Of a stretch of 64,000 nucleotides of DNA, positions 3,931-62,950 are shown in pieces. The DNA comes from Candidatus Levyibacteriota bacterium. Lineage in GTDB: Bacteria; Patescibacteriota; Microgenomatia; Levybacterales; UBA12049. Every line of letters starts with the position of its first letter. Within the stretch, counting starts at the first letter, position 1. Under the pieces are notes generated by a model. It did no database searches. It saw only the letters and a program-made list of their open reading frames with translations, and had not been told where the DNA came from. A program made the translations under genes and the position numbers. The DNA lies in assembly GCA_016186645.1 (NCBI GenBank), contig JACPLF010000005.1, positions 109,995 to 173,994 on the forward strand, given 5' to 3'.

Positions 3931-4630
3931 GTAAATTAACGGCAAAGATAACGGGATCATGATTTAGTAGCTGGTTCTTGGTCTTTCGTTTCAGAAGTTC
4001 TCTGACAAAGACCAGAAACTAGCGACTAAATATTCTGGCTCTTTGACCCTCCTGCGCTAAAAGCTACGGAAGGGTCAATAAGCAAAAACAAACCGTTAAG
4101 GTTAGAGACGGCATCGCCACTCGAAGCTTTAGCGAAGTGTGGCTCTTTGACAAGTGAGGAGAAGCCCTATACAAAGCTTGCTTCGCGTCGGAGGCTTACA
4201 GTCTCGCGCCCGCGAAGTGCGCTTGTACAGGGTAAATTTTTTAATTTTAAAATCTACTCATAATGCCGATAATGAATGCCTAGGAGATTTTGGCCGAGGA
4301 AGGACGCAGACGGCGGCGATACTCGTTGGGGAGGTGCCATCAACCTTTGATCCAGCGGTTTCCGAATGGAGCAATCCACTCGTCTTTGACGAGGAGCCAC
4401 TCATAAAAATATTACCGCAAGGTTTTATATAGTGTTTGGCAGGGTACGGCGCGAACCGAAACATCCAAGTAGCGCCAGGAAAATAAATCATAGACCCCGT
4501 TAGAACTTTGGTAGTAAAACTTGTTACGTTAAGAAAGATTTTGCTAACTTAACTTGAGAAGAGACTTTATTTCCAGAGTTCTAACGGGGTAGAGATTCCG
4601 TTAGTAGCGGCGAGCGAAAGCGGAACAGTC

Positions 4631-4977: not shown

Positions 4978-5562
4978 CACCCCGGAAGGGGAATGAAATA
5001 GAACTGAAATTGTCGGCTGACAAGCAGGCAGAGGAACGTAACGCGCAAGCGTGTACGTTCTGATGCCGTGCCTATTGAAGAATGAACCGGTGAGTTATTC
5101 CCTCACTTTCGTCTAAGCCATTAAGTGGCGCAGGCAAAGTGAAAGCAAGCTCTAATTGAGCATTTTTAAAGTGTGGGATTAGACCCGAAGCTGGGTGAGC
5201 TAACCTTGGGCAGGGTGAATCCCGATGAAAATCGGGAGGAGGCCCGAACTCGTGACTGTAGCAATAGTCTGAGATGACCTGAGGTTAGGGGCAATATGCC
5301 AATCGAACCCAGAGATAGCTGGTTCTCCCCGAAATATATTTAGGTATAGCGGTCGCCATGTAGTTGCCTGGGGTAGAGCACTAAATGGTTCGCGGCAACG
5401 CAAGTTGTCGTAACCAATTAAACTCCGAATACAGAGCAACATTGGGCGACTAGTCAGACTGGTCGGGCTAAGCCGATGGGTCAAAAGGGAAACAACCCAG
5501 ACTCCCAATTAAGGTCTCTAAATAAAAGCTAAGTTTAGAAGGAAGTCAAGTTCCATAGACAA

Positions 5563-5593
<31 letters not shown>

Positions 5594-6488
5594 TAAAGAA
5601 AGCGTAACAGCTCACTGGCGGATTGGAATTTGGCGCCCAAAATTTAACGAGGATTAAGCTTTTTACCGAAGTTGGAGGAACGTACACTTTTGCTTTGCAA
5701 AATGTTACGTTCGGTAGGGGAGCGTTCTAAGTGCAGCGAAGTCGTGGTGTAAACCATGGTGGAGTGCTTAGAAGTGAGAATGCCGGTATGAGTAGCGAGT
5801 GTCTGGTGAGAAACCAGGCCGCCGAAAACCCAAGGTTTCCTCCGCAATGTAAATCAGCGGAGGGTTAGTCGGTCCTAAGGGTGTTCCTCTTTGGTCCTAA
5901 GGGTGTTCCTCTTTTGGGGAGTAGCCCGATGGGCAAGTCGTTGAGATTCGACTACAAATTATACATATTCTAAGGGGAAGTCGAAGATAGAAGAATCAAG
6001 GCCAGCTAAGCTGGCTTTAAGTAGTGAAATAGGATGAAATGGTAAATACGTTCATCTGTTTAATTAAGCTACGATGAAAACCCTGAGAGCAATCGAAGGG
6101 TATTTGATCGCTTTTAACTTCCGAGAAATATCCCATTAGTTCCATTCATTTGTGAAAAAATGTATATTTTACCGTACCGACATCCGACACAGGTGGGTTG
6201 GTCGAGAAGACTAAGGCGAACGGGAGAAAGATGGTCAAGGAACTCGGCAATAAATCTGGGCGTAACTTTTGGAGATGCCCTACCAGCTACCATGCGGTAC
6301 CTGGTTGCAACAAAAGATTATTAAGCGACTGTTTATCTAAAACACAGGTCCATGCAAAACTGAAAAGTTAAGTATATGGGCTGAAGCCTGCCCAGTGCTG
6401 GTAAGTCAAAAGTTGAGAATCAGGCTCGCAAGAGTCAAAGTTTTTAACTTAAGCTCCAGTAAACGGCAGCAGTAACTATAAGAAATTG

Positions 6489-7190
6489 TAGTTGTAAAAG
6501 TCGACTAAATGCTGGAAAATCCGTACCGTGATTCTGCTTTACAGAACAAACGGTTGCAGTATCTGACGCTACCATGTATTATGGTAATAATGCGATCAGT
6601 GCGGACAATCAGCAGGAAAGACTTGACGAAGAAAGAGCTAGGATTTTTCCTTGCTGGGTTTGTTGAAGGAGAAGGAAGTTTTAATGTCTCGTTACGGCGC
6701 AAGCCTGACTATAGACTCAAATGGCAAGCGGTAATGAGTTTTAATGTTTCGCAAAAAGACCCTACCTTATTAAAAATTTTAAAGGAGGAGCTAAAATGCG
6801 GAATTATTAAAACACGTAAAAGAGACAATCTATATTCCTTTGATGCAACAAATCCTAAGGATCTAATCCAGAAAGTCATTCCATATTTCAAAAAATATCC
6901 AGTTCAATCTGATTCTAAAAAGAATAATTTTTCTATTTTTTGCAAGATAGCAAAATTAATGGAAAAAGGGGAACACAGAAATTTGGCTGGATTAAGGTTA
7001 ATCCTAAAACTTCGAGAGAAAATAAACATTGGAGCAGGAAGAACAAGGAAATATGATATAGATGATGTTTTTTCTAAGTCAGGAATCCTCAGAGACTATA
7101 CGTCGACGTCCCGCTCAGCGGGACATGATATAGTCCGACCTCATGAACGATCATGAGACTCTGTAATCAATCAGAGTACCGCGATTAGCG
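6489..7190 (+). mobile_element. 23S intron 1, inserted after GTAACTATAA (E. coli ~1917); carries a LAGLIDADG homing endonuclease ORF
   Basis: The exon sequence breaks after gtaactataa and resumes with ctgttctaaggtagcgaa. The intervening sequence encodes the endonuclease. Confidence 0.7.
6509..7156 (+). CDS. LAGLIDADG homing endonuclease (intron-encoded)
   Basis: Contains LAGFVEGEGSF and a second, degenerate motif. The probable start is the ATG at 6590 (MRSVRTISRKDL...). Confidence 0.75.
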   Translation: MLENPYRDSALQNKRLQYLTLPCIMVIMRSVRTISRKDLTKKELGFFLAGFVEGEGSFNVSLRRKPDYRLKWQAVMSFNVSQKDPTLLKILKEELKCGIIKTRKRDNLYSFDATNPKDLIQKVIPYFKKYPVQSDSKKNNFSIFCKIAKLMEKGEHRNLAGLRLILKLREKINIGAGRTRKYDIDDVFSKSGILRDYTSTSRSAGHDIVRPHERS

Positions 7191-7232
7191 GGATAACAAT
7201 GTGAACTGTTCTAAGGTAGCGAAGCCCCTTGT

Positions 7233-7496: not shown

Positions 7497-7787
7497 GTCT
7501 GGTGGGCAGTTTAACTGGGACGGTTGACTCCTACAATGCAACGGAGTCGTACAAAGGTTGGCTAGCTCCGGATGGAAATCGGAGTGATAGTGCAAAGGCA
7601 TAAGCCAGCTTGACTGCGAGACTTACAAGTCGAGCAGGGACGAAAGTCGGTCTTAGTGATCCTCAGTAGCATAGTGGTATGCTCTGAGCTTAACGGATAA
7701 AAGCTACCCTGGGGATAACAGGCTTATCGCATCCAAGCGTTCACAGCGACGATGCGGTTTGGCACCTCGATGTCGGCTTAACACAAA

Positions 7788-8186
7788 TAGTGTTTGGGCC
7801 CTTCAGTAAATAATTACTGTTGTAAATTTGGCTAATAACGGTGGACTCCTAATTGACTAAGTAAAGTTTCTCAAGTTATGATAAAGTCAATGGACAATAC
7901 CGTGGGAAGTCGCATTTTTCAGAACACTCGGAAGACTCGGTTTTCCAGGAACATCAGAATATCTGGCTATCAGATTGTCTGAGCCTCTGGTTTACTGAGT
8001 AATAATCTGAGTTTTCTGAAATATTGTTGACCCCGTAACGACTGATTCTTTAGCAAACTAAATTGAACCCTTAGTTTGTAATAGATGAGATTCCAGTTTT
8101 TGGAATCATACGCCGAACCCCTCTCTTTTTTCAAAAAAGTGGGGGTGATGATATAGTCTACACTTCTAGTAACAGAAGATTCATGT
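7788..8186 (+). mobile_element. 23S intron 2 (ORF-less), inserted after GATGTCGGCT; it contains repeat R1
   Basis: The exon resumes with catcgcatcctggggg...gggtcgggctgttcgcccgttaaagcggtacgcgagctgggttcagaacgtcgtaagacagt. Confidence 0.65.
7921..8022. repeat. R-family MITE-like element, copy R1 (inside 23S intron 2)
   Basis: Carries the terminal motifs cagaacactcggaagactcgg and ctgagttttctgaaat shared with R2 to R5. Confidence 0.6.
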
Positions 8187-8212
8187 GCATCGCATCCTGG
8201 GGGTGGAGAAGC

Positions 8213-8272
<60 letters not shown>

Positions 8273-8280
8273 AAGACAGT

Positions 8281-9028
8281 AGACCTATAGCGTTAATTAC
8301 GCTATTAAATGAGCTGTCTATAAATCTAGCTATTTGCTGGAAACTCCGAGTATCTTCAACTACTTGACAAATGACTTATCGTAGAGATACGATATCTCTA
8401 TGTCTAGTGATAATGTTGGAAGTGCGGACAATCAGCAGGCAGCTGGGAAAGAAATTTCTAATGAGTATTTAGCAGGATTCACCGATGGTGAAGGGTGTTT
8501 CTATGTGGGATTTGGTAAGAGAAAAGACCTGCCGCTTAAATGGCAAGTAATTACCGAATTTCATGTAAGTCAAAATCCAGGCGGGAAAAATGTTTTGGAA
8601 GAGTTCAGAGAAAGGCTTGGTTGTGGCTATTTAAAGCCCAATCATGCAAAGAGCTTGAAAGACAAAACTTGGATTTTAATTGTGAAAGATAGAAAGGATT
8701 TAAAAGAAAAACTTATTCCTTTTTTTCAGCAACACAGATTGCACACAAGCAAACAAAAAGATTTTGAAATCTTTGTAAAAGTGCTTGAAAAAATTGAAAC
8801 GGGAAAGCATTTAACTAAAGATGGTTTTAAACAAATCGTTGAATTAGTTTTTGCCACTACCAGGGTAACAAATAAAAGATATTCAAAAGAATCACTTCTT
8901 TCCTAGAGCCTCAGAGACTACATGCTAGATGATGCATTGAATAGTGCGTCAAAGATATAGTCCGAACTGCATGGCGACATGTAGAGCGTATCAGAAATGC
9001 TACGTCATTCGTAAGAATGTAACATATT
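8281..9028 (+). mobile_element. 23S intron 3, inserted after GTCGTAAGACAGT (E. coli ~2595); carries a second LAGLIDADG homing endonuclease ORF
   Basis: The exon resumes with cggtctctatccagga...cccctagtacgagaggac. Confidence 0.7.
8400..8906 (+). CDS. LAGLIDADG homing endonuclease (intron-encoded)
   Basis: Contains LAGFTDGEGCFYV. It shares the 19-nt string agtgcggacaatcagcagg with the first endonuclease gene, in a different reading frame. Confidence 0.75.
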   Translation: MSSDNVGSADNQQAAGKEISNEYLAGFTDGEGCFYVGFGKRKDLPLKWQVITEFHVSQNPGGKNVLEEFRERLGCGYLKPNHAKSLKDKTWILIVKDRKDLKEKLIPFFQQHRLHTSKQKDFEIFVKVLEKIETGKHLTKDGFKQIVELVFATTRVTNKRYSKESLLS

Positions 9029-9160
9029 GTCGGTCTCTATCCAGGACAACCGATTGAGATTTGAGGAGATTCGCCCCTAGTACGAGAGGACTGGGATGAG
9101 GAAATCCCTGGTGTGCCAGTTGTTCTTACAAGAGCATCGCTGGGTAACTATATTTCCAAC

Positions 9161-21256: not shown

Positions 21257-21330
21257 GGGCTCGTAGTTAAGTGGCAAAACGATGCATTCGCATTGCATAG
21301 GCGAGGGTTCGATTCCCTCCGAGTCCACCA
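21257..21330 (+). tRNA. tRNA-Ala (anticodon CGC), CCA encoded
   Basis: Acceptor stem gggctcg/cgagtcc with G3:U70. Anticodon loop ttcgcat. Confidence 0.75.
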
Positions 21331-21434
21331 AGGAAAATGAAAAGTTCAAAATGCAAAATTAAAAATTGCAATTCAAAACTTAAAATTTTGGACTATAGCT
21401 TTTCACTTTTAATTTTGAATTTTAAATTTATTCT

Positions 21435-21507
21435 GGGCCCGTAGCGTAACGGCTATCGCGTTTTCATGGCATGAAAAAGATTAGGGGTTCGATTCCCCTC
21501 GGGTCCA
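21435..21507 (+). tRNA. tRNA-Ala (anticodon GGC), no encoded CCA
   Basis: Acceptor stem gggcccg/cgggtcc with G3:U70. Anticodon loop atggcat. T-arm ggggttcgattcccc. Confidence 0.75.
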
Positions 21508-21521
21508 CAAAGGGTAAAGCT

Positions 21522-62059: not shown

Positions 62060-62950
62060 ATGAAGAAATTATTAAGATCCCGCGATATATTGCTTTTGGG
62101 TTTGACTCATGCTTTAGATCTATTCGAAGAGATAAAAGATCCGTTGCATCTTGTAAGCAAAAGCTATGAGAACATGTATGGATGGGTACCCAAACAATAC
62201 AAAAAACATCAGTTTAATCACTTGGTCTGGAGGACATTAAGAGCGGGTTATATAGAAAAAATAGAGAAGGAAGGCAAAATGTATATTCGGATAACATCCC
62301 AAGGAGCAAAAATGGCTCAAAGAGATTTCCCGCTATTGCATTTGCAAAATAAGAAGTGGGATGGCAAGTGGAGGATTGTTATGTTTGACATTGCAGAAAT
62401 TCAGAAAAGGAAAAGAGATTATTTACCCCGTTACCCAATGCCCCATCCGTTAGGATGCGGGTTTCTAATGGCGTGAAACGAAAATTCAATAATGCCCCGA
62501 CCATAAGGTCGTGGGTAACGGGGTTTACGAGAAAAACTGAAAGAGTTAGGGTTTGGCATGCTTCAAGAATCTGTTTTCATAACTCCTCATGATATTATCA
62601 GAGATTTTTCAGAGTATATAGAGAATGCTGGTTTGCAAAATTCGGTCGATATTCTTGAGGCTACATATATTTTAGGAGACTCAAAAGAGTTAGCAAAAAG
62701 AATATGGAAGATAGAAGAGCTGAACGAAAAGTATCTAGAAATTTTGCAAAAGGCACAAAAAATGAAAAATAGCCATTTAATCACAACACGCGGCCGCACG
62801 AAACAGTTAAATAGCTTAAATAGTAAAGTAAAGGAAATAAAAGAAAAATATGTGAAGGTGTTATTGGGTGATCCTTTTTTGCCCTCAGCGCTTCTTCCAA
62901 AAAATTACAGTCGTGATCAGGCAGGAAGGCTTATAAAAGAACTATTTTAA
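62060..62950 (+). pseudogene. PaaX-family regulator gene split into two ORFs by a 98-nt MITE
   Basis: ORF 62060..62476 and ORF 62558..62950 are in the same frame. Removing the element plus one TTTA copy restores ...KWDGKWRIVMFDIAEIQKRKRDYLREKLKELGFGMLQESVFITP..., the PaaX W-x-G-x-W...GFGxL signature. Confidence 0.55.
62426..62523. mobile_element. 98-nt MITE with perfect 12-bp terminal inverted repeats (CCCCGTTACCCA / TGGGTAACGGGG) and a TTTA target duplication
   Basis: TTTA flanks both ends. Element plus duplication is 102 nt (3n), but it carries in-frame TGA and TAA stops. Confidence 0.6.

Follow-up and report, generated by a model that had tools for sequence, protein, structure and literature searches.

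Probable inactivation of a PaaX-family regulator gene by a 98-nt MITE whose ends recur in distantly related bacteria

A gene for a PaaX-family regulator is interrupted, at positions 62426-62523 of the window (the whole 64-kb stretch of DNA analysed here), by a 98-nt element with perfect terminal inverted repeats and a duplicated 4-bp target. We interpret the element, with a probability of about 0.82, as a recent MITE insertion that was moved in trans by a DDE-type transposase and that inactivates the gene. Evidence for this interpretation includes the restoration of an intact reading frame when the element is cut out in silico, the comparison of the filled site with empty orthologous sites, and the recurrence of the same ends in many other genomes.

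The insertion in the PaaX-family gene

The element begins with CCCCGTTACCCA (62426-62437) and ends with the exact reverse complement of that sequence, TGGGTAACGGGG (62512-62523), as read directly from the sequence. The tetranucleotide TTTA abuts it on both sides, at 62422-62425 and 62524-62527. Both repeats and both TTTA copies are given on the + strand, and the element itself is left unstranded. Only the outer 8 nt of each 12-bp repeat correspond to the ends that are conserved throughout the family described below. The G+C content of the element is 53%, against 38% for the window. None of the six frames is both long and free of stops, leaving the element with no coding capacity and no transposase gene, and its length falls within the size expected of a MITE (less than about 500 bp). 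It is predicted to fold into a closing stem with internal hairpins at −50.7 kcal/mol (z = −6.1 relative to shuffled sequence).

The 5' part of the gene (62060-62476, + strand) encodes 122 native residues followed by 16 residues contributed by the element, after which it ends at a TGA. The 3' part (62528-62950, + strand) continues in the same frame with native residues 123-262, and its first ATG lies at 62558. The open reading frames 62060-62476 and 62558-62950 thus share one frame, and the public assembly calls the two halves as separate genes, the 5' one encoding 138 aa. The element together with one TTTA adds 102 nt, a multiple of three, and places three stops in the frame of the gene: TGA at 62474-62476, TAA at 62504-62506 and, within the right terminal repeat, TAA at 62516-62518. 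Because two of these stops are TAA, a genetic code in which UGA is reassigned would not rescue the gene.

When positions 62426-62527 are cut out in silico, a continuous protein of 262 aa results. It carries both the central Cas2-like domain of PaaX (PF20803; E = 1.2e-24, 86.6 bits against a cut-off of 24, residues 98-174) and the PaaX C-terminal domain (PF08223; E = 4e-8, 34 bits against a cut-off of 22). The restored protein is matched by 519 database proteins, the top ones being 78-84% identical over their full length. In an alignment with 22 homologues the junction between KRKRDYL and REKLKELGFGMLQESVF (REKLKELGFGM) is free of gaps, and every residue that is invariant across the 23 sequences is retained. 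At positions that do not vary among its 10 closest homologues, the window protein has five changes of its own; the homologues themselves have 1-7 each. Both halves are thus otherwise undamaged, which argues that the insertion is recent. The break falls at codon 122/123, inside the Cas2-like domain; by sequence pattern it would lie in the first helix of that domain, after the strand WRIVMFDI. An N-terminal product would keep the winged-helix part, and neither the element nor the sequence after it showed a promoter-like site. Most likely, as judged from the reading frame, no full-length regulator can be produced any more and the gene is inactivated.

The orthologous contigs carry the gene order glycogen synthase, galT, paaX, atpC, atpD. 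Two of them (L127 and L130), aligned through galT-paaX-atpC synteny, have an empty site that reads gattaTTTAcgaga with a single TTTA. Comparison of the filled site, with its two copies of TTTA, with these empty sites establishes a 4-bp target-site duplication. A perfect 12-bp inverted repeat is not by itself significant in 64 kb, since several perfect inverted repeats of 13-14 bp are present in the window. The combination of a gap-free PaaX match after excision and empty sites with a single TTTA is far beyond chance.

These results bear out the first-pass annotation of the locus, which had proposed a 98-nt MITE with perfect 12-bp repeats and a TTTA duplication, an insertion of 102 nt with TGA and TAA in frame, two same-frame reading frames and a PaaX signature restored by excision. 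The profile matches place both halves as contiguous parts of one protein family, the uninterrupted allele that was to be sought in relatives exists at L127 and L130 and in the aligned homologues, and the empty sites show that the TTTA flanks are not coincidental. Absent from the annotation were the copy in the 23S rRNA gene, the spread of the family across phyla and the restriction of the conserved ends to 8 nt.

The source name of one homologue (P0013) indicates a host close to Candidatus Roizmanbacteria. A stretch of 2,020 nt that includes the insertion is 100% identical in the public contig CAZDTO010000012.1. The contig (L093/L164) is labelled as uncultured Gammaproteobacteria; its genes and the relatives of its 23S rRNA are those of Roizmanbacteria-like Patescibacteria, and the label is probably wrong.

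A second copy in the 23S rRNA gene

The sequence CCCCGTTA occurs only twice in the window, and each occurrence is the left end of a hairpin of about 95-98 nt flanked by a 4-bp direct repeat. The full pattern CCCCGTTA(N70-100)TAACGGGG was observed twice, where 0.00 occurrences were expected. The second occurrence is a 95-nt element at 4495-4589 (unstranded), within the 23S rRNA gene. It has the same 8-nt ends and forms a rod-like hairpin with an imperfect 25-bp stem, its interior is unlike that of the 98-nt element, and it is flanked by TAGA at 4491-4494 and 4590-4593. Once the element and one TAGA are cut out, the gene is colinear with its E. coli counterpart at about positions 227-229 of the 23S rRNA.

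When metagenomes were scanned with the right flank, the empty site, aaatcatTAGAgattcc, with a single TAGA, was recovered in ten close relatives. A filled site in one relative (L132) has the same 16-nt ends and the TAGA duplication, and its interior is homologous to that of the window copy but diverged, with the rod fold kept. The two filled genes do not group as sisters in a neighbour-joining tree built from the flanking 23S sequence, and empty sites fall between them, which makes the filled state patchy. This pattern could have arisen by independent insertion at the same site, by clean loss or by recombination. We propose that the 23S copy forms an additional helix that would be tolerated in the rRNA.

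The 23S rRNA gene of the window contains other insertions. Two of them, at 6481-7204 and 8280-9073 (about E. coli positions 1918 and 2604-2648), contain LAGLIDADG-type reading frames at 6509-7156 (215 aa, LAGFVEGEGSF) and 8400-8906 (168 aa, LAGFTDGEGCF), and both are probably group I introns that carry homing endonucleases. A third insertion, at 7785-8188 (about E. coli position 2515), is about 400 nt long and is without a long reading frame on the sense strand.

The family in other genomes

Genomes representing one per species (596 Gb) were scanned for the pattern ACCCCGTTA(N65-95)TAACGGGGT, which yielded at least 120 loci with the family ends. By our own arithmetic, chance alone would give about 270 matches to this pattern in 596 Gb. 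The matches are nonetheless not chance occurrences, because positions outside the search pattern are conserved, stems are usually longer than the pattern demands and the 4-bp flanks are in most cases identical. The consensus end is CCCCGTTAGAaat, and among the matches listed repeat positions 9-10, which lie outside the search pattern, are G in 90% and A in 96%. The ends can be written 5'-CCCCGTTA(G)...(C)TAACGGGG-3', with the outer 8-10 nt conserved family-wide and stems that usually run beyond the pattern.

Record titles of the matches listed place about 42 hosts in Patescibacteria, 25 in Desulfobacterota or "delta" lineages, 13 in Planctomycetota including Brocadia, 9 in Omnitrophota and 6-7 in Nitrospirota, with scattered others. 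Interiors vary widely. One subfamily has oriented GGGGCATT motifs and hairpins, and the window element aligns with it; the ends CCCCGTTA...TAACGGGG and these interior motifs together tie the 98-nt element to the family. Consensus folding of an alignment of 15 members of the subfamily recovered only the terminal stem, the interiors being aligned too poorly.

The first-pass annotation had suggested a search for other copies of the 12-bp repeat, and here the outcome was divided. The exact repeat pair had no match in the metagenome scan, and the sole match in the genome scan for the subfamily defined by it was the same locus, making this subfamily single-copy in everything searched. Elements sharing the 8-nt ends, by contrast, are the two in the window and those at the loci elsewhere, as expected of a multi-copy MITE. 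Five matches were obtained in a scan of viral contigs, about the number expected by chance, and none was informative.

Identical 4-bp flanks border 82 of the 122 elements among the matches listed. The other 40 have non-identical flanks that still conform to TNNA and are often inverse-complementary (TTCA/TGAA), as at two Brocadia loci (L020, 5514-5613; L066, 6964-7061), where such flanks lengthen the hairpin outward. These cases are attributed to putative rearrangements between copies, and a simple target-duplication model leaves them unexplained. Since the scan pattern fixed A at −1 and T at +1, the frequency of TNNA among the matches is partly built in. In 25 further elements that lie in the same loci and do not match the pattern, T at −4, A at −1, T at +1 and A at +4 were each found in 19-21 cases (about 75-85%). 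Duplications such as TATG and CGAG among the non-pattern elements show that the duplication is 4 bp long, that CCCC...GGGG is the element proper and that TNNA is a preference. Immediately beyond the duplication, R and Y are the favoured bases in the larger set, so that the target is often R-TNNA-Y.

Several loci point to mobility and to selection against genic insertion. Two elements on different contigs of JAFDFZ01 (L100, 2858-2969; L118, 6915-7026) are identical at 111 of 112 positions, have unrelated flanks and are each bordered by TAAA, which indicates recent transposition; another locus (L077) holds three copies inside 8 kb. A restored reading frame of at least 150 aa spans the site for 8% of elements, compared with 68% of random positions in the same loci, which means that genic insertions are normally lost. 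The clear genic copies in other genomes are all multiples of three in length and free of stops, and are read as inserts of 31-37 residues: a 108-nt insertion at 1700-1803 of L110, in what appears by eye to be the frame of an ABC-F-type ATPase, and insertions of 111 nt (L069, 1732-1838) and 93 nt (L032, 6059-6147) in other protein-coding frames.

Rfam at the gathering threshold gave no match to the elements at 18 family loci, and a literature search on the end sequences, on MITEs in Patescibacteria or the Candidate Phyla Radiation and on TNNA duplications found nothing relevant. With no Rfam match and no paper found, the family appears to be undescribed.

Mechanism and mobilising enzyme

In the mechanism that we propose, a DDE-type transposase supplied in trans would recognise the ends of the element and cut with a 4-nt stagger at a target that is usually TNNA and often R-TNNA-Y. 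At the PaaX locus, insertion duplicated TTTA and put the three stops into the reading frame. Selection keeps most family elements outside genes, with genic copies persisting where they are a multiple of three and stop-free or where, as in the 23S rRNA, they could be tolerated as an extra helix.

The mobilising enzyme is inferred, because about 0.9 Mb of DNA flanking the elements, in the fetched loci, yielded neither an autonomous element nor a transposase with family ends. In these loci no convincing pair of ends was seen at a spacing of 0.6-5 kb when up to 2 mismatches were allowed, and when 576 of their ORFs were compared all against all by BLAST, ABC ATPases and similar common families recurred and no transposase did. 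Paired copies in L011 and L114 enclose ORFs that were inspected for an autonomous partner, those in L011 being ordinary host proteins, and the ORFs beside solitary ends likewise encode host proteins.

One locus of the same genome, just beyond the 3' end of the window (L164; features at 5257-6769 and 8449-9069), encodes an orphan 206-aa HTH_28/HTH_32 protein that looks like an N-terminal transposase remnant, with no catalytic domain adjoining. The same locus has two PF05635 genes (23S rRNA intervening-sequence protein) that adjoin the ATP synthase genes.

Alternative explanations

The element and its duplication add a multiple of three nucleotides and the two halves are intact, facts that are compatible with a gene that stays in use. 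One alternative is that full-length PaaX is still produced, either through removal of the element from the RNA, with RNase III or another endonuclease cleaving at the foot of the 12-bp stem and the ends then being ligated, or through translational bypass. The closing stem would juxtapose the exon ends within a very stable fold, and the persistence of a family member in a presumably essential 23S rRNA gene in two lineages suggests that the RNA is either tolerated or processed. However, an Rfam scan of the 98-nt element at E values up to 10 gave no match covering it, intron and ribozyme models included, and exact restoration would require the loss of 102 nt and not of the hairpin alone, owing to the 4-bp duplication. 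When RNase III excises intervening sequences from bacterial rRNA, moreover, the RNA is not re-ligated. Across the family as a whole, neither the avoidance of coding sequence (8% versus 68%) nor the bias of genic copies towards stop-free multiples of three would be expected if the elements were spliced from RNA, where such properties would be needless. We therefore regard RNA-level removal or bypass as very unlikely, and of the explanations offered by the first-pass annotation it is the recent inactivating insertion that is favoured, whereas the idea of removal from the RNA lacks support, there being no intron or ribozyme signature and the family avoiding genes.

A somewhat less remote alternative, though still an improbable one, is that the gene is split and both halves are used, with a 138-aa N-terminal winged-helix protein and a 130-aa C-terminal protein starting at ATG 62558, acting separately or reassembled. 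This would fit the two intact ORFs and their separate calls in the public assembly, the lack of an excess of private substitutions and a TAGGG located 6 nt upstream of the ATG. Yet the putative ribosome-binding site is ordinary coding sequence, KELGFGM being conserved in all homologues, and a restart at Met133 would lose native residues 123-132. The break also falls inside the Cas2-like domain (PF20803, residues 98-174), a promoter-like site is absent in and after the element, and none of the aligned homologues is split at the junction. That the insertion is not mobile at all, but an inverted repeat that arose by chance, an insertion particular to the lineage or an artefact of assembly, is scarcely credible. 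While perfect 12-bp inverted repeats are not rare in 64 kb and the exact subfamily lacks another copy in the collections searched, such an origin is at odds with the exact 4-bp duplication revealed by filled and empty sites, the ends and interior motifs common to at least 120 loci, the second copy in the window and the identical sequence in an independent public record. A recent, inactivating MITE insertion remains the explanation that we prefer.

Comparison with known elements

The family resembles Correia/NEMIS elements of Neisseria, RUP of Streptococcus pneumoniae and ERIC in being about 100-150 nt long, non-coding and bounded by hairpin-forming terminal inverted repeats, with a short target duplication, many mostly intergenic copies and presumed mobilisation in trans by the transposase of an insertion sequence. 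It differs from them in its ends (CCCCGTTAG...), in a duplication of 4 bp, mostly TNNA, in place of TA, in far more variable interiors and in ends that span several phyla and not one genus; no partner insertion sequence was found at the fetched loci.

Rickettsia palindromic elements are palindromic, about 100-150 nt long and located in both protein-coding and RNA genes, the genic survivors being in frame and read through (PMC10969869). The copies in L032, L069 and L110 behave in the same way, each being in frame and translated within its host protein. The window copy, in contrast, carries three in-frame stops and so cannot be read through. Whereas Rickettsia palindromic elements are often genic, the present family avoids genes, and the two share no sequence similarity and differ in host range.

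The 23S copy at 4495-4589 resembles the intervening sequences of 23S rRNA, which are classically excised by RNase III, in being an extra helix of about 100 nt with a long stem. It is distinguished from the classical ones by its family ends, its TAGA duplication and the empty sites in relatives. Classical intervening sequences occupy 23S helices 9, 25 and 45, and the window copy lies at about E. coli 227-229.

Two other kinds of palindromic sequence were considered and rejected. Integron attC sites have their GTTAG/CTAAC cores in the opposite arrangement, and the family additionally shows target duplications and genic insertions; an IS200/IS605-type palindromic element is at variance with the identical 4-bp flanks of two thirds of the copies.

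A possible relationship to piggyBac is suggested by the target site and the ends taken together. Transposons of the piggyBac/IS1380 group make a 4-bp T..A duplication, TTAA with variants such as TAAA and TCAA, and have repeats that start with CCC, and IS1380 elements are the prokaryotic relatives of piggyBac (PMC10813416). The present family likewise has a 4-bp duplication and repeats starting with CCC. Unlike in piggyBac, the two central target bases are free, and no IS1380- or piggyBac-type transposase was found near the copies at the fetched loci. The piggyBac repeat CCCTAGAAAGATA apparently resembles CCCCGTTAGAAAGATA of L006. We treat this kinship, drawn by analogy, as a lead and not as evidence of membership.

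An extension of this lead, which we consider doubtful, is that the window and 23S elements are the first recognised members of a cross-phylum MITE superfamily (CCCCGTTAG...CTAACGGGG, with 4-bp, mostly TNNA duplications) moved by a seamlessly excising IS1380/piggyBac-type transposase. Seamless excision, if it takes place, would allow an element to sit reversibly in an essential gene, and would account for the uneven distribution of the filled 23S site in closely related genomes.

Implications

In one Roizmanbacteria-like lineage the insertion has probably knocked out a regulator of the PaaX type, and the disruption of a single gene by a MITE is ordinary. The very small genomes of the Candidate Phyla Radiation are generally seen as containing little mobile DNA. 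Here, genomes of this group bear active-looking MITEs whose ends are held in common with those in Omnitrophota, Desulfobacterota, Planctomycetota and Nitrospirota, and such shared ends point to a transposase that is shared, or that moves horizontally, in communities of anoxic groundwater and sediment. Insertion of family members into both rRNA and protein genes suggests one concrete origin for some of the short insertions in the rRNA genes of these bacteria. The conserved ends also offer a simple annotation signature for genes that have been falsely split.

A palindromic sequence of a different setting was seen elsewhere in the window, where two tRNA-Ala genes with CGC and GGC anticodons (21257-21508) are separated by an A+T-rich palindromic spacer (21333-21429).
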